From: an uncultured Clostridia bacterium
GTDB taxonomy: Bacteria; Bacillota; Clostridia; Christensenellales; CAG-314
Reading direction: 5' to 3'
Assembly: GCA_947625115.1 (NCBI GenBank)
Contig: CANQND010000001.1
Location: 5,678 to 69,677, forward strand
DNA: 64,000 bases
Part shown: positions 1-64,000 of the stretch, in pieces
How the letters are laid out: each line of letters opens with the position of its first letter
How positions within the stretch are numbered: position 1 is the stretch's first letter
Notes under the pieces: generated by a model
The model's input: the letters and a program-made list of their open reading frames with translations, nothing else
Databases searched by the model: none
What the model was told of the DNA's origin: nothing
Made by a program: the position numbers and the translations under genes

Positions 1-1572
1 ATAGTGTTGATACTTGCGGCAAGCGTGGCAATATTTGCCGCATGCAGCACCAAGGTCATCATGATTTGGGGACCGGGCAACCACGAACAAGTGTATATGA
101 AAGCGATAGAGGACTATCGCAAAGATCACCCCGATCAATTCAAGGGGTATGAATTCCGTTATGCGGGCAGCGGCGACAGCGGCGCGTATGCGGCAATGCA
201 AGTAAGCGTAGAAAACGGCGCGGCAATCTACACCTTTGCAAACGACCAAACGGCAAACCTCGCCAACCTCGGCGCGCTTGCCACTTTGACAGAGGAACAA
301 GTTGCTTGGTCCAAGCAAAACAACGACGAAAACGCAGTGCAATCCACGATTTTCGGCGAGGACGATGAGGGTAACCCCGTCTACGTGGCATATCCTTTGC
401 AACCCGATAACGGTTACATTATGTATATCAACGCCGACGCTTTCCGCGGCACGACCATTTGGGACGATAATGTGGAAAACATCGACGGCACCAAGGGCAA
501 CCTCAAACCCGGCTACACTTTCCGCCAACTCTACGCGGCGTTGGACGCCAACACTTCCGCTCCTTTGGGAACGCACAGCTCCGGTGATAATAAAAAGGGA
601 CAACCCATCACTTGGAAAGAAGATGGCAAAGTTATGTGGCCTATGGGCGACAGCTGGTACCTTAGCGGAGTGTTCTTCTCGGTGGGCGGCGACTACGAAG
701 TCAAGTACTCCGACGACGGCAGCAAGCAGGAAAGCGCGCGTTGCTGGTTCTGCTGTGACGAGAACGTTACCGACTACCGCAGAGGGGACTTTACGGTAGG
801 TAAAGACGCGTACGAGTGCATAAAGAACACTTTTACCAACGCCGACAACACCGTCAATGACCACTTCTTCTTCCCCACCAGCAGCTACAACGAAGATATC
901 GAAACGCACATCGACAAATCGCAGGTAGCTTGGGAGGAAGCTCCCTTTGCGGCGGCTATGTGCGGCACTTGGGAAGCCAACGCCATCAAAGAGGCTTGGG
1001 GCGACGACTACCGCGTTACTGTTTTGCCCACGTTGGAAAGCGACGACGGCGAACTCTTCCAGATGAAGAACTTCCGCGGTTACAAAAACCTCGGTATCAA
1101 CCCGCAATGCAGCTACGTAATGGACGCTCCCGTGGAGGAACGCCTTGCAAGGTTGAACGAGTTGCACGAATTGGCTCAATATTTCTGCGGTAAGGAAGTG
1201 AGCCTTGCTCGTCACGACGCTACGGGCGCAGGTCCCGCCAACAAAGAAGCGTTGGCAGACGAATCCGTTGCCAAGGACCCCGCTTTGCAAGCTCTCTACG
1301 CTCAATACGATATCGAATGCGTTTACCCCAACAATTACAAAAAAGAAGAATTGCGCGGTCAAAAGATAGGCACGGAGGGTCAACTCGGTTACGGCGTAGG
1401 CTACCGCGTACAGGACAGCGTTCCCGCCAACTATTGGAAGCCTATCGAAAACTTCGGCAAACTTATTTGGGCGGAGTTCAGCACACAGAAGTTCTCAAAA
1501 TTGGGCAGCAATGACAAGATTGTAAGTCAATTGTTCAATTTGCAAACGGAAATCCAAAAGACAAGTGCCTGA
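1..1572 (+). CDS. ABC sugar (maltodextrin/oligosaccharide-type) substrate-binding lipoprotein, 5' end cut by window edge
   Basis: Frame is open from base 1. The N-terminus reads ...AASVAIFAAC, a lipobox-like signal end. The ~520 aa size and position directly upstream of MalF/MalG-type permeases fit a binding protein. Confidence 0.8.
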   Translation: MVLILAASVAIFAACSTKVIMIWGPGNHEQVYMKAIEDYRKDHPDQFKGYEFRYAGSGDSGAYAAMQVSVENGAAIYTFANDQTANLANLGALATLTEEQVAWSKQNNDENAVQSTIFGEDDEGNPVYVAYPLQPDNGYIMYINADAFRGTTIWDDNVENIDGTKGNLKPGYTFRQLYAALDANTSAPLGTHSSGDNKKGQPITWKEDGKVMWPMGDSWYLSGVFFSVGGDYEVKYSDDGSKQESARCWFCCDENVTDYRRGDFTVGKDAYECIKNTFTNADNTVNDHFFFPTSSYNEDIETHIDKSQVAWEEAPFAAAMCGTWEANAIKEAWGDDYRVTVLPTLESDDGELFQMKNFRGYKNLGINPQCSYVMDAPVEERLARLNELHELAQYFCGKEVSLARHDATGAGPANKEALADESVAKDPALQALYAQYDIECVYPNNYKKEELRGQKIGTEGQLGYGVGYRVQDSVPANYWKPIENFGKLIWAEFSTQKFSKLGSNDKIVSQLFNLQTEIQKTSA

Positions 1573-4295: not shown

Positions 4296-5909
4296 ATGAA
4301 AAACAGATTCGTAAAAACAGGCGCGTTGCTGTTGACGGCTTTGCTGTGTCTGACACTGTTGGCGGCTTGCGACAGCGGCGAAAAAGAAATGACAAATCTG
4401 CCGCTGACTACCGACAAGTTCCGCTCGATGTATCAGATCTTTCCCTATTCCTTTGCCGATAGCAACGGCGACGGCGTGGGAGATATTCAAGGTATCATCG
4501 ACAAGTTGGACTACATCGACGATATGAACTTTGACGGTATTTGGCTTACGCCCGTACACCAATCGCCCACCTATCACAAGTACGACGTTATCGACTACAA
4601 GACTATCGACCGCCAATTCGGCACAATGGAGAACTACGACAAGTTGGTGGAAGAGTGCCACAAGCGCGGTATGACCGTGTTGCTTGACCTCGTTATCAAT
4701 CACACGTCCGATCAAAGCGAGTGGTTCAGACAGTTCAAGGCGGCGCGCAGACTCAACAACCCGCGCATAAAGTACTACAACTACTACAACTTCTCGTCCG
4801 TGCAGTTAGACGCCAGCTCTTGGCATTCTATCGACGGCTCTGGCAATATGTTCTACGAGGGCGAATTTTGGAGCGGTATGCCCGACCTCAATTGGAGATC
4901 CATTTTGGACAACCCCGATTGCGATTTGGCAAAAGATCTTACCGAAGTTATGCGTTTTTGGTTGGAGGACCACAATGTGGACGGCTTCCGCTTGGACGCC
5001 ACGGGAGAGTTTCTCTCTTCCGCCGAGGACAACGCCGCTTGCTTGAAGTGGATCAACGACACCGCAAAGTCCATCGCCCCCGATTGCTACATAGTGGCAG
5101 AACCCGATTGGGGCGGACCGTTTGACGTGTACTACGGATCGGGCATAGACAGCGCGTTTTTGTTCAATCTTTCGCAGGGCGGCGGCGGAATTTCCGCTTC
5201 GGCGCGTTTGCAAAAGGTATCGCGTTTCATCTCCATCGACGTCGACAACCAAAAGGTTGTGGGCGACGGTATCCCCGCTTTGTTCGTTTCCAATCACGAC
5301 ACGGGGCGCGCTATCGGCGCGTTGCAGGGTTTGCGCGATCAAAGCACAATGAAGCTCGGCTACGGCTTGATGTCGATGTGTATGGGTACCACGTTTTGGT
5401 ACTACGGCGACGAAGTGGGTATGCAGGACTTCCCGCAGACTACGGGTGAAAAAAAGGTCATCGACGAACACAAACGTCAGCCGATGCCTTGGGGCGACAG
5501 CTATCAATGCACTCCCGTTGCGGGTACCGACAAAAACGTTTCGGACGAAACAAAGTATCCGCTGGGCAACGTAAAGGAAAATTTGTCGGACAAAAATTCC
5601 GTTTTGAACTACATTGCCCGTGCCAACGCTTTGCGGCGCAGTTTCCCCGCAATAGCCCGCAACTTCGGCGTTGAGGTGTACAGGTCTTCTTCCAACACCG
5701 TCGCGCTCATTCAAAAGGGTACGGGCGCGGAAGCGGTGTACATCGCGCTTAACGTGTCGCAATTGGCGGCGGAAACGTTGGACGTTGCACAATGGGGAGG
5801 CTTTGAGCTTGCGGGAACGCTTTCGGTAGATGTAAATTCTATGCCCGCTATGGACGGATCTGTGTTGACATTGCCACCAATGACAATTGCAATTTTGCGT
5901 AAAGTTTAA
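4296..5909 (+). CDS. GH13 alpha-amylase-family glycosidase, lipoprotein
   Basis: Signal peptide with lipobox LLAAC. GH13 conserved regions are present: DLVINHTS, GFRLDATGE, YIVAEPDW, FVSNHD. Confidence 0.85.
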   Translation: MKNRFVKTGALLLTALLCLTLLAACDSGEKEMTNLPLTTDKFRSMYQIFPYSFADSNGDGVGDIQGIIDKLDYIDDMNFDGIWLTPVHQSPTYHKYDVIDYKTIDRQFGTMENYDKLVEECHKRGMTVLLDLVINHTSDQSEWFRQFKAARRLNNPRIKYYNYYNFSSVQLDASSWHSIDGSGNMFYEGEFWSGMPDLNWRSILDNPDCDLAKDLTEVMRFWLEDHNVDGFRLDATGEFLSSAEDNAACLKWINDTAKSIAPDCYIVAEPDWGGPFDVYYGSGIDSAFLFNLSQGGGGISASARLQKVSRFISIDVDNQKVVGDGIPALFVSNHDTGRAIGALQGLRDQSTMKLGYGLMSMCMGTTFWYYGDEVGMQDFPQTTGEKKVIDEHKRQPMPWGDSYQCTPVAGTDKNVSDETKYPLGNVKENLSDKNSVLNYIARANALRRSFPAIARNFGVEVYRSSSNTVALIQKGTGAEAVYIALNVSQLAAETLDVAQWGGFELAGTLSVDVNSMPAMDGSVLTLPPMTIAILRKV

Positions 5910-11467: not shown

Positions 11468-12226
11468 ATGAAGAAAGCGGCAATTGTCGTCGCGCTCCTG
11501 CTTGTTTTGCTGACCTTTGTCGGCTGTGAAAAGAAATATACGCCTGATCCGGAGGTCGAACAGTATCTCAACACGGGTTTGACTCCGGACAAGGCGTATT
11601 CACGCATAGTGAGCGTTTCCTACACCACCCAAAACACGGTCAAGGACAAGAACGGCACCGTAACGGGCGAAAACAAGGTGCAAGTGGAGTTCGACGTATC
11701 CGACGCGGAAAACCTTATCTACACAAACAAACAGACCTATATGGGCATCTACGTGCAGGACGGCACGGTGGAATCGGTTTCCACCGCGGTAAAAACGGCA
11801 GACGGGTACAGTTTTGAAACGGTTCGTACCGCGCAGGACGGCACCGTCAGCAAAAGCGCGCAAAGCGTAGACGCAAAGTTTGTAACGGACCTCATTCGGT
11901 CGCACGTGTTCGAGCAAAACGGCGTCTATGCCGAGGGCGGGCTGTACTTCGGCGATTACTTTATGCAGTACATTTACCGCTATCCGCCCGAAGCGTTCTA
12001 TGTGGACAAGCAGGAAAATCTCTGCGTGTTCGACGCGGTGGTGCATGTGTCCAACGACGCGTTAGACAACACCTACATCACGCAAAAGATAAAAATCAAC
12101 ACTCTCGGTTTGATAACCTACTACTACGAACAATATCAGGACGTAAACACGGGTACCACCCTAACAAGCGAAACCCTCCCCGCGTACGTATTGACGGAGG
12201 AGGGCGAACAGCCTGCAAATGCGTAA
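11468..12226 (+). CDS. Hypothetical lipoprotein co-transcribed with pullulanase
   Basis: The start lies 2 nt after the pulA stop. Signal peptide with lipobox TFVGC. I recognise no family. Confidence 0.65.
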   Translation: MKKAAIVVALLLVLLTFVGCEKKYTPDPEVEQYLNTGLTPDKAYSRIVSVSYTTQNTVKDKNGTVTGENKVQVEFDVSDAENLIYTNKQTYMGIYVQDGTVESVSTAVKTADGYSFETVRTAQDGTVSKSAQSVDAKFVTDLIRSHVFEQNGVYAEGGLYFGDYFMQYIYRYPPEAFYVDKQENLCVFDAVVHVSNDALDNTYITQKIKINTLGLITYYYEQYQDVNTGTTLTSETLPAYVLTEEGEQPANA

Positions 12227-12238
12227 AAGTTTGTTTTG

Positions 12239-12733
12239 TCAGATTATGGCAAAGGAACCCGATTCGTGGCGGAATGTAAAGAAGTAGATAAGGGTAAAAA
12301 TCAAATTGATACCGAGTATCAACCCCACGCCGATAACAAACCATTGCGAACGCAACGATATGTTGAGAAAAGGCGTAATGTATGCGGAAACAAAGAATAC
12401 CGCAGTCATAGTCATAGCGACGGCGATACCTATTGAAACAAGCACAATGCCCGTAACATAAGGTGTGCCGTCGTTTTTGAATACGAGGTTTTTCATCAAA
12501 ATGGTGGGCAGCTTGAAAGACCTCACGATAAAGCCCATTATCGCCCCCTCAAAGAGGATAGCGCACAGGGTGGAAATCAACAAAATTATGTCGTCGAAAG
12601 TCAAACCGTTGTGTACGCCGTTTAGCAGATTTTCAAAAAATATGTAGACGGCGTAGATCTCTACCAAGGCGGAAAACACAAGGTAAATAATTTTGAAAGC
12701 AAGCGATTTTCGGCGCGATACCTGATAGTACAT
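12239..12733 (-). CDS. Hypothetical small membrane protein (about 4 TM)
   Basis: 164-aa hydrophobic ORF, convergent with the upstream operon. Confidence 0.6.
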   Translation of the reverse strand: MYYQVSRRKSLAFKIIYLVFSALVEIYAVYIFFENLLNGVHNGLTFDDIILLISTLCAILFEGAIMGFIVRSFKLPTILMKNLVFKNDGTPYVTGIVLVSIGIAVAMTMTAVFFVSAYITPFLNISLRSQWFVIGVGLILGINLIFTLIYFFTFRHESGSFAII

Positions 12734-12816
12734 TCTGCCCTCCTCGCAGATTTTTAAGGATAACTAAATTATAAATAATTTCGACGATTTTGTCAATTCG
12801 TCGGTAAGGAGTAACA

Positions 12817-14511
12817 ATGGAAAAAAGCGCGATACTACACCAAAGCGATTCGAGATTTTCTTTCCCCGTCAGCGCGACGAAAGCGATCGTGCGTTTGAGA
12901 ACTAAACGCGACGACGGGATAAAAAGCGTTGTCGTTTTGTGGAATTCAGGTCACAAATTTTGGCAAAAACAGTTCCGCCTGCCGTTGGAAGTAAAGTACC
13001 AAGACGAACTTTTCGATTGGTACGAGGGCGAGTTGGATAACGGTGCGCCCGGCTATTCGTACCTGTTTGAGATAACGGACGGCGACGGTACCGTGTGGTA
13101 CTACAACGAAAGCGGTTTTGATACCGTTTTGCGGTTGGAACACTCTTTCGAGGACAATTTCACCGTGGTTTTCCCCAACGCGGCGGATACGGTCACTCCC
13201 AACAAGGCGTTCGAGGGGCGCGTGTTCTACCAAATTTTCCCCGAGCGTTTTGCAAAGGCAAGCGGCAAGCAAGCCGACTACATAAATATGGAATGGGGTA
13301 CGGAAAAACCCGACAATATGCGCTTTGCGGGCGGCGATTTGAGGGGCATTTGCGAAAAGTTGCCCTATCTCAAAGATCTTGGCGTCGGGGCTGTGTATAT
13401 GACGCCCATTCACCAATCCCGTTCCGCCCACAAGTACGACGTTGAGGACTACTTTTCGGTGGACTCGATGTTCGGCGATTTAGACGACTTAAAGGAACTT
13501 ACTAAACAGGCGCACCTTTGCGACATAAAGATAGTTATGGACTTGGTTTTCAACCATTCAAGCTACTTCAACGCCCTTTTCCAAGACGTGGTGAAGCAGG
13601 GCAAAAAGAGCAAGTACTACGATTGGTACTTTGTCAACGGCGACAAGCCCGACAGGCGCAAACTCAACTACAACACTTTTGCCGACGTGTGGGGTATGCC
13701 CAAGCTCAACACCAACAATCCGCAGGTGCAGGATTACCTCTGCCGCGTGGGAGAGTTCTATCTCAAAGAGTGCGGCGTGGACGGCTACCGTCTGGACGTG
13801 GCTAACGACGTTTCGCACGAGTTTTGGCGGCTTTTCAAGAGCCGTTGCAAGGCAATCAACCCGCAAGTGTTCGTCATAGGCGAAGATTGGCAAAATTCCG
13901 AGTCTTTCCTCGGCAACGATCAGTGGGATAGCGTTATGAACTATCCTTTCAGGTACGCGTGTACCCGTTTTTTGGTGGACGATCGCTACAATGCCGAAGA
14001 TTTTTGCAACTATCTTAACGGCGTTCTGATGCGGTACAAGGACGGCACAAACGCAAATATGCTCAACCTGTTGGACTCGCACGACACGCCTCGCTTCTTC
14101 GAAGAGGTCGGTCACAGCAAAAGTTTGCTGTTGCTTGCCGAAGCCGCGCTTATGTTTTACCCCGGCAACCCAATGGTGTACTACGGCGACGAGATTTTTA
14201 TGGACGGCGCAAGAGATCCCTACAATCGCAAGTGTATGCGGTGGGGCAGTCCCGAGTTTAACTGTTCGGAACACGGCGTAATGCGCTATTTACTGCGTTT
14301 GCGCCAACGTGACGTTCTCAAACGCGGTTCCGTGCGCATTTACTCGCGTAACGGCATTGCGTTCATAGAACGCGCTTTTAACGGCGAAACGCTTGTTTTG
14401 GCGTTGAACCACAGCGGCAAGGAAGTAACTTTGCAAAGCGACCCCGTTTACGGCTACAACTGCACAGGCAAAACGCTGTTCAACAACGGCTTTGCCGTCT
14501 TGGAAAAATAA
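12817..14511 (+). CDS. Intracellular GH13 neopullulanase/cyclomaltodextrinase-like alpha-glycosidase
   Basis: No signal peptide. Motifs: YQIFPERF, DLVFNHSS, GYRLDVANDV, VIGEDWQ, LLDSHDTPR. AAGGAG precedes the ATG. Confidence 0.85.
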   Translation: MEKSAILHQSDSRFSFPVSATKAIVRLRTKRDDGIKSVVVLWNSGHKFWQKQFRLPLEVKYQDELFDWYEGELDNGAPGYSYLFEITDGDGTVWYYNESGFDTVLRLEHSFEDNFTVVFPNAADTVTPNKAFEGRVFYQIFPERFAKASGKQADYINMEWGTEKPDNMRFAGGDLRGICEKLPYLKDLGVGAVYMTPIHQSRSAHKYDVEDYFSVDSMFGDLDDLKELTKQAHLCDIKIVMDLVFNHSSYFNALFQDVVKQGKKSKYYDWYFVNGDKPDRRKLNYNTFADVWGMPKLNTNNPQVQDYLCRVGEFYLKECGVDGYRLDVANDVSHEFWRLFKSRCKAINPQVFVIGEDWQNSESFLGNDQWDSVMNYPFRYACTRFLVDDRYNAEDFCNYLNGVLMRYKDGTNANMLNLLDSHDTPRFFEEVGHSKSLLLLAEAALMFYPGNPMVYYGDEIFMDGARDPYNRKCMRWGSPEFNCSEHGVMRYLLRLRQRDVLKRGSVRIYSRNGIAFIERAFNGETLVLALNHSGKEVTLQSDPVYGYNCTGKTLFNNGFAVLEK

Positions 14512-21117: not shown

Positions 21118-21193
21118 TGGTGGGGAGTACAGGGCTCGAACCTGTGACCCCCTGCTTGTAAGGCAGATGCTCTCCCAACTGAGCTAACTCCCC
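21118..21193 (-). tRNA. tRNA-Val (anticodon TAC), CCA encoded
   Basis: The reverse complement GGGGAGTTAGCTCAGTTGGGAGAGCATCTGCCTTACAAGCAGGGGGTCACAGGTTCGAGCCCTGTACTCCCCACCA folds as a cloverleaf with a 7-bp acceptor stem. Confidence 0.9.
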
Positions 21194-21195
21194 AT

Positions 21196-21271
21196 TGGTG
21201 ACTCCTACGAGAATCGAACTCGTGTTACCGCCGTGAAAGGGCGATGTCTTAGACCGCTTGACCAAGGAGCC
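21196..21271 (-). tRNA. tRNA-Glu (anticodon TTC), CCA encoded
   Basis: The reverse complement is GGCTCCTTGGTCAAGCGGTCTAAGACATCGCCCTTTCACGGCGGTAACACGAGTTCGATTCTCGTAGGAGTCACCA. Confidence 0.9.
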
Positions 21272-21278
21272 TTATAAG

Positions 21279-21355
21279 TGGTAGCGGCGGTCGGATTCGA
21301 ACCAACGACCTGCCGGGTATGAACCGGCCGCTATAACCATCTAAGCTACGCCGCC
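21279..21355 (-). tRNA. tRNA-Met (anticodon CAT, elongator-type; Ile2/lysidine type not excluded), CCA encoded
   Basis: The reverse complement is GGCGGCGTAGCTTAGATGGTTATAGCGGCCGGTTCATACCCGGCAGGTCGTTGGTTCGAATCCGACCGCCGCTACCA. It lacks the GGG/CCC anticodon stem of initiator tRNA. Confidence 0.85.
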
Positions 21356-27632: not shown

Positions 27633-27739
27633 AACCTATCGAGAGTGACTGAGAGACGGACTCGGTGAAGTCACAGCAACCTAAAATTTTTTTTCGGTTA
27701 GGTGCTAATTTCCGCGACGAACAAGTCGAAAGATGGGAC
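27633..27739 (+). promoter_or_regulatory. SAM-I (S-box) riboswitch aptamer
   Basis: CCUAUCGAGAG...GAGAGA...GGUGAAG...CAGCAACC...GGUGCUAAUUUCCGC...AAGAUGGG matches the S-box core. The P1 helix forms between CCUAUC and GAUGGG. Confidence 0.85.
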
Positions 27740-55820: not shown

Positions 55821-55844
55821 GCCGCGCTTTTCTCGAAGCGTAGC

Positions 55845-55975
55845 CTAAATCTCACCGTGGGCGTGGCATTCGGACTTGTCCAAAAATTGGCTTACCGTTG
55901 CGGAACAGTCCCCGATTTGCACGGGGTTCCCCGTTTAATGCACATACTTTCGCCGTGCAACCCATGGGTATTCAA
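55845..55975 (-). promoter_or_regulatory. Cobalamin (B12) riboswitch aptamer
   Basis: The minus strand reads AAACGGGGAACCCCGUGCAAAUCGGGGACUGUUCCGCAACGGUAAGCC...AGUCCGAAUGCCACGCCC. This matches the GGGAA / GUGnAAAUC / CCGCAAC-GUAA / AGUC-GAA-GCCAC core (B12 box). Confidence 0.8.
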
Positions 55976-56008
55976 TTGAGATTGTGTCGTAACTTTCGTT
56001 ACCGTTTT

Positions 56009-56605: not shown

Positions 56606-57211
56606 ATGCGCAAAAAGATAAGCCCCAAAACAAAATACAATGCGGCTCTTGTAGCCGTTGCCGCTATGTACGCCGCGTTGTTGGTGGGCGGCAAGCAGAT
56701 ACTTGCGGTTTTGCCCAATGTTGAAATCGTCACTCTGCTCATTTCCGTGTGCGCCTACGTGTGGGGAGCCGCAATAGTTTTCCCTGCGGTAAACGTGTTT
56801 ATTGCTGTGGATATCGCGATATGGGGTGTAAATACTTGGATAATTTCCTACCTGATACATTGGAACGTCGTTGCGTTGTGCTTTTGCCTGTTGAAGAGGC
56901 TAAACTTTCGGCACAGGTACGCCGAGGTGATTTGCGTAACGGCGGCAGGAGTTGTTCTCACCGTTTTGTTCGGAGTGTTGACTTCATTCGTCGATGTGTT
57001 GGTAGGGTACACGGGTAAGGGCTTTTTTGTACATTCGGTTGACCTCGCCAAGCGGTTTGCCGTTATGTACACGTCGGGCGTAATGTACTATGCAACGCAA
57101 ACGGTGTGCAACGCGGTGCTTTTTGCGACGGCTTTTTTGCCGCTTGTCAAGCTCAACGTCAAAGCGCAAATGCGCTTGCAACCCCGCGACGAAAGGGATC
57201 AAAGCGATTGA
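56606..57211 (+). CDS. Small polytopic membrane protein, ECF S-component-like
   Basis: The ATG at 56606 lies 5 nt after the upstream stop. The ~200-aa product has 5-6 TM segments. LPNVEIVTLLISVCAYVWG resembles substrate-capture subunits commonly adjacent to DUF4430 genes. Confidence 0.5.
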   Translation: MRKKISPKTKYNAALVAVAAMYAALLVGGKQILAVLPNVEIVTLLISVCAYVWGAAIVFPAVNVFIAVDIAIWGVNTWIISYLIHWNVVALCFCLLKRLNFRHRYAEVICVTAAGVVLTVLFGVLTSFVDVLVGYTGKGFFVHSVDLAKRFAVMYTSGVMYYATQTVCNAVLFATAFLPLVKLNVKAQMRLQPRDERDQSD

Positions 57212-57236
57212 CAAAACGTAGATAAAGAACTATACT
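57208..57236 (+). promoter_or_regulatory. Promoter of proS
   Basis: TTGACA-17 nt-TATACT. Confidence 0.7.
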
Positions 57237-57245
57237 TACAGGGAA

Positions 57246-57276
57246 ACTTCACTTTGCGCGTAGCGCAAAACTTCAC
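57246..57276 (-). repeat. 31-nt copy of the GTGAAGT-hairpin repeat unit (inverted orientation) in the proS 5' UTR
   Basis: ACTTCAC-TTTGCGCGTAGCGCAAA-ACTTCAC is the reverse complement of 58787-58817 with 30 of 31 identities. Confidence 0.85.
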
Positions 57277-57293
57277 TATCACAAGGAGTTTGT

Positions 57294-58727
57294 ATGCCTG
57301 AAAAATTTGTAACGCAAATCGCCGATATCAACGAAAACTTTACCCAATGGTACACCGACGTAGTACTGAAAACGCAACTTGTCGATTACGGTCCCGTCAA
57401 GGGTACAATGGTTATACGCCCTTACGGCTACGCCATTTGGGAAAACATTCAGCGCGAATTGGACGCCCGTTTCAAAGCCACGGGACACCAAAACGCTTAC
57501 TTCCCGATGCTTATCCCAATGAGCCTGCTCAACAAGGAGGCGGAACACGTTGAGGGTTTTGCCCCCGAGGTGGCTGTGGTAAACGTTGCGGGCGGCGAAA
57601 CTTTGGCGGAACCCGTCGTCATTCGTCCCACCAGCGAAACTATCATTTGCAATATGTATTCCAAGTGGGTCAACAGCTATCGCGATCTGCCCTTGAAACT
57701 CAACCAATGGGCAAACGTGGTGCGTTGGGAAAAGACTACCAGACCGTTTTTGCGCACGTCGGAATTTTTGTGGCAGGAGGGTCACACGATACACGCCACT
57801 CGCGAAGAATCGCTCAAAGAAACTTTGGATATGCTGTACCTGTACCGCGATTTCGCTCGCGAAGTGCTTGCAATGCCCACGTTTATCGGGCAGAAGAGCG
57901 AAAAGGAGAAATTTGCGGGGGCGGAAGCCACTTTCGGAATGGAAGCTATGATGTTGGACGGCAAGAGTTTGCAAGCGGGTACTACCCACCACTTCGGGCA
58001 AAAATTCAGCCGCGCCTACGACATTCAATTCCTTGACAGGGACGGCACGCACAAGTACGTGTGGCAATCGAGTTGGGGAGTTTCCACTCGTCTTATCGGC
58101 GGACTTATAATGGCACACGGCGACAGTCGCGGCTTGGTGTTGCCTCCCAAAGTTGCGCCCGTGCAAATTGTCGTCATTCCCGTTGCCGCCCACAAAGAGG
58201 GCGTTGCCGAAAAGGCGGCGCAAGTTGCCGAACAACTTCGTGCAAAGGGCTTGCGAGTCGAACTCGACGTCCGCGATCAATCGCCGGGGTGGAAGTTTAA
58301 CGAATGGGAAATGAAAGGGGTACCTCTGCGCATAGAAATCGGTCCCAGAGATATAGAAAACGGCGTTGCGACCTGTTCTCGTCGCGACACGTTGGAAAAG
58401 TTCACTTTGCCGCTCGATAGACTTGCCGACGAAGCCGCGTCGCTTTTGGAAGAAATTCAGACTGCAATGTACAACAAATCTCTCGCTTTCCGCGACGCAC
58501 ACGTAAAGTATGCTCACGATATGCGCGAACTCGGCGAAATTTTGGATAGCAAATGCTTTGCCAAAGTGGTTTGGGACAAGGACCCCGCTTGCGAGGCGGC
58601 TTTCAAAGAGAAGTATCAGGCAACCGTGCGCGTAATGTTGGACGAAACGCCTTTCCAAGATACTTGTACCTGTTGCGGCAAAAAAAGCGACAACCTTGTC
58701 GTGGCGATTGTGGCAAGAGCGTATTGA
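57294..58727 (+). CDS. proS: Prolyl-tRNA synthetase (short, archaeal/eukaryote-like type)
   Basis: 477 aa. WYTDVVLKTQLVDYGPVKGTMVIRPYGYAIWE, RWE...RPFLRTSEFLWQEGHT and GTTHHFGQKFS are ProRS class II motifs. Confidence 0.93.
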   Translation: MPEKFVTQIADINENFTQWYTDVVLKTQLVDYGPVKGTMVIRPYGYAIWENIQRELDARFKATGHQNAYFPMLIPMSLLNKEAEHVEGFAPEVAVVNVAGGETLAEPVVIRPTSETIICNMYSKWVNSYRDLPLKLNQWANVVRWEKTTRPFLRTSEFLWQEGHTIHATREESLKETLDMLYLYRDFAREVLAMPTFIGQKSEKEKFAGAEATFGMEAMMLDGKSLQAGTTHHFGQKFSRAYDIQFLDRDGTHKYVWQSSWGVSTRLIGGLIMAHGDSRGLVLPPKVAPVQIVVIPVAAHKEGVAEKAAQVAEQLRAKGLRVELDVRDQSPGWKFNEWEMKGVPLRIEIGPRDIENGVATCSRRDTLEKFTLPLDRLADEAASLLEEIQTAMYNKSLAFRDAHVKYAHDMRELGEILDSKCFAKVVWDKDPACEAAFKEKYQATVRVMLDETPFQDTCTCCGKKSDNLVVAIVARAY

Positions 58728-58904
58728 GCGTTCCGACCACTCGTGCGTTCCGACCACTTGTCGCTCGGGACATTCGCCCGAGGACAGTGAAGTTTTGCGC
58801 TATGCGCAAAGTGAAGTTGTGCTGTCGCACAGTGAAGTACGCCTTGCGGCGTGTGAAGTTTGCGGCGTTGCCGCAAGTTGAGGACGGGGCGTAAACGCCC
58901 GAAC
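58728..58904 (+). repeat. Mosaic repeat copy A: duplicated GCGTTCCGACCAC, hairpin, 4x (GTGAAGT + short hairpin), terminal hairpin
   Basis: GTGAAG occurs at 58787, 58811, 58832 and 58853 (spacing 24, 21, 21). Each is followed by a 12-17-nt palindrome. The copy is homologous to 59548-59800 (inverted) and 63718-63880. Confidence 0.85.
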
Positions 58905-59007
58905 AGTTTGCACTACTGTACGCGGGGAGTAGTTGATTACTGCGTATGATATATTTAATATTTCAATATACTTTGCCCAAAGGGAACAACTCGGCAACGG
59001 AAATATA

Positions 59008-59071
59008 AACCGTCCCCGTCGTTGAGCAAAATGGGTCCCCGCGCAAGTACGCAAATACTTGCGTGGGAAGA
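59008..59071 (+). repeat. Repeat module M3 (GC-rich long hairpin), second copy at 63937-64000
   Basis: AAACCGTCCCCGTCG..GCAAAATGGGTCCCCGCGCAAGTACGCAAATACTTGCGTGGGAAGA is near-identical to the window end. Confidence 0.8.
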
Positions 59072-59303
59072 GGAGCCGCCGACTGTTAGCGGTACCGAGC
59101 GCGCTTGCGCGCTTGGTGCTAACCAAAGCCGTGCGGCGACGAGGGGGAAGGGGGACCGCCGTTAGGCGGTGGAAGAGGAATATTTGCAACCAACTCGGTT
59201 AAATGAGTTGCAATTACAAAACTAACTTTGTGTTACAATTATAACTAAAAAAGACAATTCCCTTTGTTTTGATACAGAGGGAATATTTTTAGCAATATAT
59301 AGT

Positions 59304-59486
59304 TTGCTTTTCAAGTCGAAACTCATCAGTCACCTAACGGTGACGACTGCGTTGGGGCGTTAGAAAAGCCCCAACTTGCCCGCGCTGGTTTCAGGTAGAC
59401 TACTTGCTTTTTAGGTCGAAACTCATCAGTCACTTTCAGTGACGACTGCGTTGGGGCGTTAGAAAAGCCCCAACTTGCCCGCGCTC
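59304..59486 (+). repeat. Tandem direct repeat, 2 units of ~83 nt with 100-bp period, each containing two hairpins
   Basis: Units start at 59304 and 59404. The GTCAC-loop-GTGAC stem is conserved while the loop differs (CTAACG versus TTTCA). The TTGGGGC-N9-GCCCCAA hairpin is identical in both. Confidence 0.85.
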
Positions 59487-59547
59487 ACGGCAAAGTGTCC
59501 ACAGGACACATTTGCTTTTCGTGGCGCGCTCTTTCATCGTGAAGAGA

Positions 59548-59800
59548 AACCTTATACACAGTCGTACACCGTATCCCTGCAAACGGGGGTGGGCGGTCGG
59601 GAATGTAAAGAGTTCGGGCGTTTACGTCCGTCCTCAACTTGCGGCAATGCCGCAAACTTCACACGCCGCAAGGCGTACTTCACTGTGCGACAGCACAACG
59701 TATCTTGCCGCACAGCGGCAAACTTAACTGTTCTCGGGCTAATGTCCCGAGCGACATACCGCCGCACGATTGGTCGGAACGCACGATTGGTCGGCACGGC
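59548..59800 (-). repeat. Mosaic repeat copy B (inverted relative to A and C), modules M1+M2
   Basis: Its reverse complement aligns with A over the hairpin array and with C over CCCGACC.CCCACCCC...GCAGGGATAC.GTGTACGACTGTG. Confidence 0.85.
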
Positions 59801-59804
59801 AACT

Positions 59805-60770
59805 TTATTTTTTGTGTACCACAATCTGCGGGAATGGGATATTTATTCCCTGTTCGTCAAACATATTTTTGACGGCGGCGTTGAGTTCTCTGCCTGCGGC
59901 AAATATATCCGCCTCTTTGCAGGTACAGCTGAATCTGAGCGTTACGCCGCTTGCGCCGAGTGCCGTTACGCCGTCGTAGGTAACTTCGCCTACTGCGTGT
60001 TCCACTTTGAGTTTTCCCACGTGTTTTTTGATAACTTTTTCCACTTCGGGCAGTTTTGCGCCGTATTCCACGTCGATGAAAGTATGCGCGTAGCTCAATT
60101 CCGTGTCGTGGTTGATAATGCCGCGCAGGTCGCTGTTGTTGAATATTTTTACGTCGCCGAAAGATTTTATCTTGGTGGTGCGTATGCCTATGGAAATTAC
60201 TTCGCCGTGGAAATCGCCCACCGTCACGTAATCGCCAACGTTAAATTCGTTTTCAAACACAATAAACAGTCCCGCAACTATGTCGGCTATCAAACTTTGC
60301 ATACCTAAACCTACAATCAATGTCAACACTCCCGCGCCCGTGATAAGAGCGGTGGTGTCCACGCCGAAAGCCGAAAGCACGATGATAACAAATATTACTG
60401 CCGTCAACCAATTGAGCAGGTTGCAAATCAGGCTGGAAATAGTCAAGCCGCGTTGCGTTTTGCCGAACGACTTGCGCACAATCAATGCCAACACGGTAAC
60501 TATCAACAGCAAAATGGTAACGGACTGTATGCACTTTGCCAAAACAGGCACAATTCCTATCGCTTTGTCGAAGAACAGCACGCCCGTGTTCGGTTGCGTA
60601 AACCAACTGTCCTCGGCAAACAGATAGCCGTAAAACACGTAGCTCAAAACCGTTATCACAAGCATTACGGAAAGCACTATCCAACGCGCGGGGCTAACGG
60701 CGCGAATACGCTTTTTTATTTCCGAATTGTCGTTATTTTTCTTTTTTTCCGATTGCTTTGATTTACTCAT
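59805..60770 (-). CDS. MscS-family mechanosensitive channel
   Basis: Three or more TM segments followed by LIADIVAGLFIVFENEFNVGDYVTVGDFHGEVISIGIRTTKI, the MscS beta-domain signature. Confidence 0.88.
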   Translation of the reverse strand: MSKSKQSEKKKNNDNSEIKKRIRAVSPARWIVLSVMLVITVLSYVFYGYLFAEDSWFTQPNTGVLFFDKAIGIVPVLAKCIQSVTILLLIVTVLALIVRKSFGKTQRGLTISSLICNLLNWLTAVIFVIIVLSAFGVDTTALITGAGVLTLIVGLGMQSLIADIVAGLFIVFENEFNVGDYVTVGDFHGEVISIGIRTTKIKSFGDVKIFNNSDLRGIINHDTELSYAHTFIDVEYGAKLPEVEKVIKKHVGKLKVEHAVGEVTYDGVTALGASGVTLRFSCTCKEADIFAAGRELNAAVKNMFDEQGINIPFPQIVVHKK

Positions 60771-63717: not shown

Positions 63718-64000
63718 TTCCGACCACACGCAAGTCTTGTCGCTCAGGTATTCGCCCAAGGGCAGTGAAGTTTGCCGCTGTGCGGCAAGTGAAGTTGTGC
63801 TGTCGCACAGTGAAGTACGCTTTGCGGCGTGTGAAGTTTGCGGCATAGCCGCAAGTTAAGGACGGGGCAATAGACCCCGCCGTTCCACTCCCCGACCACC
63901 CACCCCTGTCCGCAGGGATACAGTGTACGACTGTGACAAAACCGTCCCTGTCGTGCAAAATGGGTCCCCGCGCAAGTACGCTAATACTTGCGTGGGAAGA
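63718..64000 (+). repeat. Mosaic repeat copy C (modules M1+M2+M3), runs off the window end
   Basis: GTGAAG occurs at 63765, 63789, 63810 and 63831, the same 24/21/21 spacing as copy A. M2 and M3 follow. Confidence 0.85.

Follow-up and report, generated by a model that had tools for sequence, protein, structure and literature searches.

The gene-free gap of about 1 kb between proS and mscS in the 64-kb window (the whole stretch of DNA analysed here, 64,000 nucleotides) was found to be an assembly of dispersed repeat modules, and its hairpin array (module M1) belongs, judged by its match to the Rfam model, to the Gut-1 family (Rfam RF01706). The Gut-1 arrays are probably REP/BIME-like dispersed structured repeats, which would here be transcribed within long 3' UTRs. 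Pfam agreed that proS and mscS are the flanking genes. The largest ORFs in the gap encoded 129, 90, 77, 71 and 47 aa and lacked a significant Pfam match, the sole match being a weak one to GntR (E 0.056), which bore out the preliminary description in finding no credible ORF there. The window contained 15 GTGAAGT heptamers where 6.8 were expected, a count reached by 0 of 100 shuffles, and 12 of the 15 fell in four named sites, which were copies A, B and C and a fragment in the proS leader. The features are listed below, with the parts of copy A assigned by sequence.

57238-57280, minus strand: fragment of a Gut-1 unit (heptamer, hairpin 1, heptamer) in the proS leader; repeat I4, 88% complementary to 58783-58825
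58729-58905, plus strand: copy A, starting 2 nt past the proS stop codon
58733-58740 and 58750-58757, plus strand: CCGACCAC boxes of copy A
58764-58782, plus strand: hairpin before the array of copy A, CTCGGG...CCCGAG
58787-58876, plus strand: four GTGAAGT-plus-hairpin units of copy A
58877-58883, plus strand: GTTGAGG of copy A
58887-58900, plus strand: hairpin after the array of copy A, GGGCG-TAAA-CGCCC
59030-59180, plus strand: module M3; repeat D3 pairs 59021-59071 with 63950-64000
59257-59284, no strand assigned: bidirectional intrinsic terminator at the centre of the proS–mscS gap
59304-59485, no strand assigned: tandem repeat, two copies of a unit of about 100 nt (repeats D5 and D8)
59557-59601, minus strand: module M2, CCCGACCgCCCACCCC..GCAGGGATAC.GTGTACGACTGTG; repeat I3, 45 nt, 89% to 63891-63935
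59604-59798, minus strand: copy B, a few nt past the mscS stop, with GTGAAGT on the strand of the mscS mRNA
63718-63885, plus strand: copy C, 3' of the Hpre_diP_synt_I gene (Pfam) and its terminator; repeat D1
63889-63935, plus strand: second M2, behind copy C
63950-64000, plus strand: start of M3 behind copy C, truncated by the end of the window; model R1 match at 63959-64000, incomplete at its 3' end

The mosaic repeat family proposed earlier proved to be real, and GTGAAGT heptamers alternating with palindromes were seen in A, B, C and the proS-leader fragment. In copy A, the four heptamers were located at 58787, 58811, 58832 and 58853 with the reported spacing of 24/21/21. Each was followed by a perfect palindrome (TTTGCGC-TAT-GCGCAAA, TGTGC-TGTC-GCACA, ACGCC-TTGC-GGCGT and TTGCGGC-GTT-GCCGCAA, in this order), and the two hairpins said to bracket the array were both present. 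Copy B was indeed an inverted copy of A, with arms at 58759-58887 and 59628-59756 (129 nt, 91% complementary) that reached about 195 nt when further arms were added (I1, I6, I7 and I9). Two of its heptamers were exact and two were decayed to GTTAAGT and GATACGT. Copy C shared the orientation and spacing of A, and its positions 63750-63868 were 91% identical to A; overall, the copies inside the window genome were about 91% alike. The model R2, which was built from this window, scored 127.6 bits on copy A, 128 bits on copy B and 27 bits on the proS-leader fragment. The fragment had been placed near 57246-57276, where it was found, but it measured 43 nt instead of 31 nt. Two CCGACCAC boxes stood right behind each of the two stop codons, those of proS and mscS; these boxes, the central terminator and the tandem repeat were absent from the preliminary description.

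Both of the other modules described earlier, M2 and M3, were recovered as repeats I3 and D3. M3 is a second repeat module, separate from Gut-1, and was a structured segment in which two hairpins are combined with single strands rich in purines (GGAAGAGG). A second copy was located in L247 at 4460-4610 (95% identical over 154 nt); that contig carried the copy C intergenic region in full (1010 bp), with M3, a duplicate of part of M3 and another M2-like module. The fold of M3 was alike in the window and in L099, with 4 compensatory pairs and G.U pairs that were invariant on the plus strand. Matches to the M3 model R1 were confined to the window genome and one other MAG (L099/L011), and M3 had no Rfam match at E<=5. 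The terminator at 59257-59284 had a stem of 11 bp, which on the plus strand was followed by ATTTTTAGCA; the minus strand showed TGTCTTTTTT. An A-run lay on its upstream side and a T-run on its downstream side, and the transcripts of proS and of mscS likely both end there. The tandem repeat contained two hairpins per copy, one of which showed a compensatory double change between the copies (GTCACC/GGTGAC versus GTCACT/AGTGAC). On the minus strand of the repeat, CUGAUGAG...GAAA was considered as a hammerhead ribozyme, which is defined by a CUGANGA core, stem II directly followed by GAAA, and the cleavage triplet NUH. The candidate was rejected: no Rfam match was obtained at E<=5, and inspection by eye showed a stem II of just 2 bp, UU inserted before GAAA and a G preceding stem I.

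The preliminary description had called the family unclassified. It is not, because the hairpin array matched RF01706, and a match to a known Rfam family was among the outcomes which that description had itself named as speaking against it. In an Rfam search space of 6.9 kb, copy C matched Gut-1 at 63763-63842 (49.9 bits, E 8e-8), copy A at 58785-58864 (48.7 bits, E 1.6e-7) and copy B at 59651-59730 on the minus strand (42.0 bits, E 8e-6), which placed the window copies 0.1-8 bits below the RF01706 gathering score of 50. All three aligned to model positions 1-77 of 77. GUGAAGU arrays in related MAGs scored above the gathering score (L079, 54.2; L041, 52.0 and 51.0; L115, 50.8; L056, 52.8). The Gut-1 motif has been on record since 2010 (Weinberg et al. 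2010, Genome Biol 11:R31, PMC2864571). It was obtained from gut metagenomes, and no cultured organism is known to carry it (PMC2864571); the one-line Rfam description gives human gut only and names no organism and no function. A literature search on the GTGAAGT heptamer gave nothing relevant.

The window copies resembled Gut-1 in having at least three consecutive covarying hairpins with a constant heptamer between them. The Rfam consensus of this heptamer is GUGAAAU, whereas the window copies had GUGAAGU, four hairpins and longer stems, and came with extra modules (CCGACCAC boxes, M2 and M3). The A-to-G change in the linker turned a modelled A-U pair into G.U. In the Rfam model, the ends of the heptamer lengthen the stems and leave GAA as the only unpaired part. 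The alternative suggested earlier, a multi-hairpin RNA with GUGAAGU linkers, corresponds to the Rfam model of the family. No host, context or function was given for published Gut-1, whereas the hosts found here were uncultured Clostridia MAGs. Rfam types the family as "Gene; sRNA", that is, as stand-alone, an annotation which lies outside the covariance model. In contrast, the window copies were embedded behind stop codons: A and B began 2-10 nt past them, and neither a promoter-like site before A or B nor a terminator directly after them was found, unlike a stand-alone sRNA gene.

Covariation strongly supported the hairpins across 108 arrays. The analysis showed that 95.9% of the cells were paired compared with 55.3% in shuffles, and 0 of 500 shuffles reached the observed value. 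Slid controls gave 34-49%; the alignment was fitted to the model, and an independent palindrome test agreed. Of 206 unique spacers, 70% had a perfect stem of 4 bp or more, as against 0.5% of shuffled spacers, and double (compensatory) changes occurred at 24 of the 24 pairs of the array model. The hairpin loops were T-rich, with T first, on the heptamer strand, a strand polarity that is not expected of a double-stranded palindrome. Since the spacers were free in sequence yet palindromic, and their loops were strand-asymmetric, a single-stranded form is indicated. The share of G.U among paired cells was about 2%, which is low for purely RNA-level selection, and DNA-level palindromes fit equally well. 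A wobble test of the long arrays, read on their GTGAAGT strand, counted 12-16 A.C against 3 G.T (small numbers), and this excess suggests that the mRNA-sense strand of the canonical Gut-1 elements described below reads ACUUCAC there. The loop polarity of the long arrays contradicts this wobble-pair strand assignment. In L246, a closing helix around the array was seen in which CCUCAACUU pairs with AAGUUGAGG, and the window equivalent was weak; as a family feature the helix was rejected for insufficient conservation.

Confinement of the copies to the window, which would have told against the proposed family, was not seen; arrays of the same design were found in genomes of uncultured gut Clostridia. 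Among the 120 pattern-matching genome loci listed, about 55 were Clostridia MAGs with the same design, and several MAGs each contributed at least two loci to the matches listed. In L103, 5 arrays lay within 8 kb. Model R2 detected 108 arrays in 509 kb of these ~55 Clostridia loci. In the heptamer-pattern scan of viral contigs, hairpin spacers were present in 0 of the 120 matches listed, and these matches gave no sign of a phage origin of the arrays. A metagenome scan with a copy-specific 21-mer returned one chance match, in a high-GC soil contig. Close relatives differed at this locus. In L244 (ProRS 91% identical), proS was followed by just a plain terminator and mscS was on the other strand, and L246 (92% identical) carried an inverted array with entirely different stems. 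The orientation of a lipoprotein gene also differed between L244 and L246. Short-read assemblies broke at the array repeats.

The REP/BIME analogy drawn in the preliminary description held in that the arrays lay outside genes, were modular, came in several copies per genome and rearranged quickly. The motif was joined to a hairpin as in the REP/BIME design, with at least several loci per MAG. Copies A, B and C began behind the proS stop, the mscS stop and the Hpre_diP_synt_I terminator, respectively, and the GTGAAGT strand was the mRNA strand. No terminator-like site was found from the proS stop to 59257, and one weak site was found on the mscS side. Because the first good terminator for proS and mscS is that at 59257-59284, the arrays most likely lie in 3' UTRs of about 550 nt, and from their position A and B would most likely be transcribed as parts of structured 3' UTRs. 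Array orientation was not strict: about 12-13 solo arrays were sense to the upstream gene and 6 were not, in a rough ORF-based count whose ad hoc gene calls took a 492-aa antisense ORF over proS and missed ApbE. At the DNA level, near-identical copies and repeated heptamers may spread and recombine, and this recombination would produce gain and loss of units, inverted copies and local inversions. In the single-stranded state, chiefly as RNA, each unit would snap into a stable hairpin, and the row of hairpins could act as a barrier to exonucleases, guide processing or serve as a docking site for a protein that recognises the heptamer together with its hairpin. The reported lack of a transposase or RAYT gene was in line with our data, as no link to such a gene was found in the window and the 8-kb loci, and clustering of the ORFs from the 55 Clostridia loci and the last 12 kb of the window revealed no recurrent transposase-like family.

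Outside the window, Avd-like PF05635 genes that lie downstream of rumA were found to have a canonical Gut-1 element as their 5' leader. The canonical Gut-1 form was half of this element of about 190 nt, which also carried an antisense array; the element comprised three sense heptamer-hairpin units, a covarying long-range helix and four antisense units that ended at the ribosome binding site. The rumA-PF05635 element occupied one orthologous site kept across many genomes, and these copies look more like a host regulatory element than selfish DNA. Avd is a positively charged pentamer and binds nucleic acid. PF05635 resembles this DGR accessory protein (PMC10053308). It is a tentative possibility, on the unlikely side, that the Avd-like four-helix-bundle proteins of PF05635 have Gut-1 arrays as their nucleic-acid partner, with the canonical element as an autoregulatory leader and A, B, C and the proS-leader fragment as dispersed operators. 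It also appears unlikely that a PF05635 partner protein has the full element as the leader of its own gene for autoregulation, while the solo arrays A, B and C put other transcripts under PF05635. PF05635 ORFs adjoined arrays in 10 of the 120 heptamer-pattern genome loci listed and in 0 of 120 viral loci, and a reciprocal test by PF05635 homology showed that the element filled the rumA-to-PF05635 gap in 13 of 13 contexts, with the last ACTTCAC 5-15 nt before the Shine-Dalgarno sequence. However, these 13 contexts were close relatives with proteins at least 85% identical and therefore amount to one conserved locus, and adjacency of PF05635 and arrays does not show binding. The layout recurred in L050 with another heptamer (TCGATAT/ATATCGA) and in the Bacteroidales locus L118 with hairpin-less GTGAAGT and GTTGAGA repeats; the joint change of sense and antisense heptamers at PF05635 leaders hints at a possible protein partner. 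On the other hand, an RNA-binding protein that reads GUGAAGU would not need an accompanying complementary ACUUCAC array, and hmmsearch found no PF05635 gene in the 64-kb window. A candidate at 15.2-15.6 kb was discarded, as its weak tblastn matches lay inside an unrelated 251-aa ORF.

Pairing of GUGAAGU arrays with ACUUCAC arrays as an antisense system is distinctly improbable. In this case the 3' UTR copy A and the 5' UTR fragment of proS would give a circular mRNA or an RNase III substrate, and both arrays of the canonical element would pair in cis beside the ribosome binding site. The fragment in the proS 5' UTR read ACUUCAC-hairpin-ACUUCAC just before the Shine-Dalgarno AGGAG (57285-57289). 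It was located between that site and a conserved promoter-like TTGACA-17-TATACT at 57208-57236, which was kept in L245, where the leader is without heptamers. The leader (57243-57280) and copy A could form 33 contiguous bp, and their cofolding gain was -39.6 kcal/mol, whereas shuffled sequences averaged -7.1 and went no lower than -16.6. However, this complementarity is automatic because the fragment repeats unit 1 of A in inverted form. Pairing of the leader with B and C was within the shuffled range, and the complementarity was absent in the relatives L244, L245 and L246 and is therefore recent and not conserved. In the minimum-energy folds of the canonical element, the sense heptamers were paired with the antisense ones, and the two changed together by lineage, with GUGAAGU/ACUUCAC here and TCGATAT/ATATCGA in L050. 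The heptamer pair in the Weinberg alignment is GUGAUAU/AUAUCAC (PMC2864571). In L088, by contrast, both arrays had one orientation and different heptamers, and identical repeated helices would invite register slippage.

A single foldback or MITE-like insertion, with A and B as its terminal inverted repeats (about 195 bp) and passive cargo between them, or alternatively an invertible segment, is a very improbable account of the whole 1.07-kb region. The inverted arms ended within a few nt of both stop codons, the insert was missing in L244, and gene orientation varied, for mscS when the window is compared with L244 and for the lipoprotein gene when L244 is compared with L246. No target-site duplication accompanied these arms, however, since the flanks GTATTGAG (left) and GCAACTTT (right) had no common direct repeat; no transposase or invertase gene was seen adjoining the region, and both of its ends kept one orientation in contigs from other samples. 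Copy C was a solo unit with other modules, and therefore the repeating entity is the unit and not the 1-kb composite. The iteron-type array suggested earlier, or another double-stranded DNA protein-binding array (a replication, partition or operator site), is scarcely credible because the spacers were palindromic and free in sequence with strand-asymmetric loops, which is unexpected for double-stranded DNA sites, although the constant heptamers were 21-24 bp apart (about two helical turns) and array sites occurred in both orientations. Iterons are identical direct repeats bound as double-stranded DNA beside a replication initiator gene or an AT-rich unwinding region, whereas this region was chromosomal and between housekeeping genes with strand-polar hairpins as spacers, the arrays were chromosomal, extragenic and many per genome, and no Rep or Par gene was noticed nearby.

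Gut-1 here behaves like a modular repeat that is dispersed, rearranges fast and coincides with inversions of nearby genes. The arrays of this locus and of its relatives put the orphan motif into genomes of uncultured gut Clostridia. Sub-threshold Rfam matches to Gut-1 are worth accepting, and 3' UTR mosaics of this kind are not to be taken for missing genes. If the alternatives of a protein partner or of pairing were true, the proS and mscS mRNAs would be tied to a PF05635 protein or to sense-antisense heptamer pairing, and a protein partner would let an orphan RNA family and an orphan protein family account for one another.

Pairing between 5' and 3' UTRs is found in Firmicutes mRNAs such as S. 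aureus icaR and B. subtilis hbs. The proS mRNA likewise had complementary segments in its 5' and 3' UTRs, but this complementarity was a by-product of two inverted repeat copies, left the Shine-Dalgarno sequence uncovered and was not conserved in relatives. In the neisserial NIME, dRS3 repeats flank variable RS segments, and the pneumococcal BOX is likewise a mosaic. The arrays shared with these a constant short repeat with variable segments and module combinations that differed by site, but here the variable segments were always hairpins of 9-20 nt with free sequence and the constant element was 7 nt. REP, BIME and REPIN elements of Enterobacteria and Pseudomonas, which are associated with RAYT transposases, are short extragenic palindromes with a conserved motif at the foot of the hairpin. 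They form modular mosaics clustered behind genes, often between convergent genes, are alike within a genome and different between genomes, and are transcribed into 3' UTRs. The arrays resembled them in the foot motif, the modular mosaic behind genes, the extragenic position, a likeness that is closer within genomes than between them and, probably, the 3' UTR placement. They differed in being direct arrays with a heptamer on both sides of each hairpin and a stem that changed with position, whereas REP elements are alternating orientations of one consensus palindrome.

The 1077 bp between the stops of proS (58727) and mscS (59805) held to the preliminary description: Pfam confirmed a ProRS gene (57294-58727, plus strand) and an MscS-type channel gene (59805-60770, minus strand) and gave no significant match for the largest ORFs inside the region. 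Across the 64-kb window we counted 15 GTGAAGT heptamers where 6.8 were expected, a number reached in none of 100 shuffles, and 12 of the 15 sites were concentrated in four places. The repeats and their neighbors were as follows:

57238-57280, inverted fragment of 43 nt
58733-58757 and 59769-59795, CCGACCAC boxes abutting the proS and mscS stop codons
58787, 58811, 58832 and 58853, plus strand, heptamers of copy A, with a perfect palindrome behind each, no two alike in sequence
59030-59180, plus strand, module M3, structured, ~130-150 nt, with two long hairpins
59257-59284, bidirectional intrinsic terminator
59304-59485, tandem repeat, two copies of a ~100-nt unit, 93-100% identical apart from one hairpin
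59604-59798, minus strand, copy B, inverted relative to copy A, arms of 129 nt at 91%, extending to ~195 nt
63718-63885, plus strand, copy C, oriented as copy A and 91% identical to it
From 63950, second copy of M3, cut by the window end; complete at 4480-4700 of L247, a contig of the same strain

The palindromes of copy A, the inversion of copy B and the orientation of copy C had all been described correctly, and comparison within the window showed that modules M2 and M3 are genuine repeats, as proposed. The inverted fragment near proS was present but longer than the 31 nt claimed; the terminator, the tandem repeat and the CCGACCAC boxes are additions. The window arrays were closed by GTTGAGG (58877-58883). 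The first hairpin of the tandem repeat carried a compensatory double change between copies (GTCACC/GGTGAC to GTCACT/AGTGAC); a hammerhead considered for its minus strand (CUGAUGAG...GAAA) was rejected, its core not being satisfied and an Rfam match being absent. Purine-rich GGAAGAGG stretches separated and followed the M3 hairpins. M3 had no Rfam match, and a model derived from it matched only this genome (two copies) and one other Clostridia MAG (L099, L011), with four compensatory pairs between the two genomes and invariant G.U pairs on the plus strand. A 492-aa antisense ORF (57279-58757, minus strand) overlapped the true proS ORF (477 aa), exceeded it in length and misled length-based gene calling. 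A SAM-I riboswitch (27633-27739, plus strand), a cobalamin riboswitch (55843-55980, minus strand) and a tRNA-Val/Glu/Met cluster (21118-21355, minus strand) elsewhere in the window were ordinary.

The repeat family had been called unclassified, which was wrong because its array matches a catalogued family, Gut-1 RNA (RF01706); a match to a known Rfam family was among the outcomes that the preliminary description itself had listed as refuting it. Rfam reported nothing in the intergenic region at gathering thresholds; the E-value search gave full-length matches of the window arrays, all three below the gathering score of 50:

63763-63842, plus strand, 49.9 bits, E 8e-8
58785-58864, plus strand, 48.7 bits, E 1.6e-7
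59651-59730, minus strand, 42.0 bits, E 8e-6

In the Rfam consensus, GUGAAAU links three hairpins, and the model lengthens each stem by pairing the last two bases of one heptamer with the first two of the next, leaving GAA unpaired; the GUGAAGU of the window places a G.U at the stem-extending pair. Arrays with the identical GUGAAGU heptamer scored above threshold in other genomes (L079, L041 twice, L115 and L056). Gut-1 was reported from 43 human-gut metagenome sequences and judged to be an RNA without a cis-regulatory role, with neither organism nor function assigned (Weinberg et al. 2010, PMC2864571). The multi-hairpin RNA, previously offered as the alternative reading, is the accepted model for Gut-1, and the window holds a genuine instance of this known, functionally unexplained family.

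When one genome of each species was scanned for GTGAAGT repeated three times at a spacing of 12-20 nt, at least 120 loci matched. Among the 120 listed, ~55 came from uncultured Clostridia MAGs of animal-gut metagenomes (labeled Christensenella, Acutalibacteraceae, Oscillospiraceae, Faecousia, Scatosoma and similar), which shared the design of the window while their stems were unrelated to it in sequence; two or more loci came from each of several MAGs. None of the 120 viral-contig matches listed to the same pattern had hairpin spacers. With the three window copies as its sole input, a covariance model found 108 arrays in 509 kb of Clostridia loci and, in the window, only the four known sites. 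Covariation supported the hairpins: in the 108-array alignment, which was fitted to the model, 95.9% of cells were paired (55.3% when shuffled, 34-49% with slid partners), and all 24 pairs showed compensatory changes. In an independent test, 70% of 206 unique spacers paired perfectly over at least 4 bp counted from their outer ends, compared with 0.5% of shuffled spacers.

Copies A and B started 2-10 nt past the proS and mscS stops, and copy C came after the terminator of a Hpre_diP_synt_I gene. Each of the three copies reads GTGAAGT in the sense direction of the gene preceding it. The scan showed one weak terminator-like site on the mscS side and none from the proS stop to the central terminator (59257-59284). 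The arrays are therefore most simply placed, by position, in two predicted convergent, structured 3' UTRs of ~550 nt, the one behind proS also containing M3 and the one behind mscS also containing M2 and the tandem repeat.

Clustering of the flanking ORFs yielded one recurrent family, of ~117 aa, matching PF05635 ("23S rRNA intervening sequence protein"), a family that is similar to Avd, an accessory protein of DGRs (PMC10053308). PF05635 ORFs accompanied 10 of the 120 genome loci listed for the heptamer pattern and none of the 120 viral loci listed. All 13 contexts fetched by PF05635 homology, close relatives counted as one conserved locus, contained a gene for a RumA-type 23S rRNA methyltransferase, a ~200-nt gap, a Shine-Dalgarno sequence and the PF05635 start; the gap was wholly occupied by a canonical Gut-1 element ending 5-15 nt ahead of the ribosome binding site. 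Canonical Gut-1 elements between rumA and PF05635 lay in:

L041 496-1050; L250-L262; L003, L026, L030, L094, L102, L110, L120

The association between heptamer arrays and PF05635 holds both pattern-first and homology-first. Distant PF05635 lineages showed a like adjacency (L003/L120; L050, with its own heptamer; L088, Acholeplasmataceae; L118, Bacteroidales). In L118 (~520-640, minus strand), hairpin-less tandem GTGAAGT and GTTGAGA repeats precede the PF05635 gene, the latter to be compared with the GTTGAGG at the close of the window arrays. In the protein database, close homologues of PF05635 mostly lay on very short contigs, as expected if flanking repeats break assemblies. The arrays could accordingly be imagined as an operator for the PF05635 protein, which we consider doubtful; no PF05635 gene was found across the 64 kb, and the link is a lead on the Gut-1 family, not on the window locus.

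Pairing of sense with antisense heptamers, including a contact between the proS 5' and 3' UTRs, would be a less probable function. In most Clostridia loci a four-unit array was followed ~30 nt on by three oppositely oriented units; minimum-energy folds paired the opposed arrays, and a long-range helix of TAAGTTTGCCC with GGGCAAACTTA covaried in four classes. Weinberg's alignment has a like layout with a different heptamer (three GUGAUAU units, then four AUAUCAC), and the leader of a PF05635 gene in L050 (2330-2700, minus strand) has four TCGATAT and then four ATATCGA, conserving the array complementarity and not the heptamer sequence; the heptamer is therefore changeable, its sense and antisense versions changing together. 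In the window, the fragment 57238-57280 was preceded by a strong promoter-like site (TTGACA-17-TATACT, 57208-57236) and followed by the Shine-Dalgarno sequence of proS, so the predicted proS 5' UTR reads ACUUCAC-hairpin-ACUUCAC. An uninterrupted duplex of 33 base pairs could join it to unit 1 of copy A, in the 3' UTR of the same predicted mRNA (cofold gain -39.6 kcal/mol; lowest shuffled value -16.6), and its pairing with copies B and C was unremarkable. The complementarity exists because the fragment is an inverted copy, and it was not present in relatives; a regulatory role is therefore treated as a minority possibility.

Relatives were found through ProRS homologues. In L244 (ProRS 91% identical), a bidirectional terminator of plain type came after proS, then a lipoprotein gene (11556-12059) in convergent orientation, with no heptamers, and mscS (12438-13394) lay on the opposite strand relative to the window. 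In L246 (ProRS 92%), the proS stop was followed by one CCGACCAC box, other modules, M2-like and M3-tail-like segments and an inverted four-unit array with every stem different; the lipoprotein gene (12540 onward) had the opposite orientation to that in L244. L245 shared the proS promoter of the window with a different leader lacking heptamers. The CCGACCAC box lay within 10 nt of the proS stop in the window (duplicated), L245 and L246, and was absent in L244; it also occurred inside M2 (CCCGACCACCCACCCC) and may serve the mosaic as a target or mark its junctions. The region downstream of proS was a rearrangement hot spot coinciding with inverted repeat modules. Short-read contigs with identical proteins terminated within the repeats, and in L247 the copy-C intergenic region, also ~1 kb, carried M1 (the hairpin array), M2 and M3, together with part of M3 in duplicate and another module resembling M2. 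The inverted arms of copies A and B would suit a foldback insertion or an invertible segment, which we rate as very improbable; no target-site duplication was found at their ends.

On the GTGAAGT strand, T was the first loop base of 25 of 26 short hairpins and of 80 of 109 long ones, a polarity that argues for a single-stranded functional form and leaves the double-stranded, iteron-type protein-binding array suggested earlier with next to no probability. G.U pairs were scarce in the array alignment (~2% of cells), which would allow the single strand to be either DNA or RNA. We think it probable, on balance, that the window contains a Gut-1-type hairpin-array repeat behaving as a REP/BIME mosaic: it would disperse and recombine at the DNA level, its array would act in single-stranded form, and the arrays here would lie within long 3' UTRs. 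An orphan RNA motif, and perhaps an orphan protein family with it, becomes open to experiment through this context. As to the REP/BIME-like element anticipated in the preliminary description, no transposase-like family recurred beside the arrays when ORFs from 55 Clostridia loci and the last 12 kb of the window were clustered. Copies were ~91% alike within this genome, stems were replaced wholesale across genomes, and modules recombined, which together amount to REP/BIME- or NIME-like behavior.
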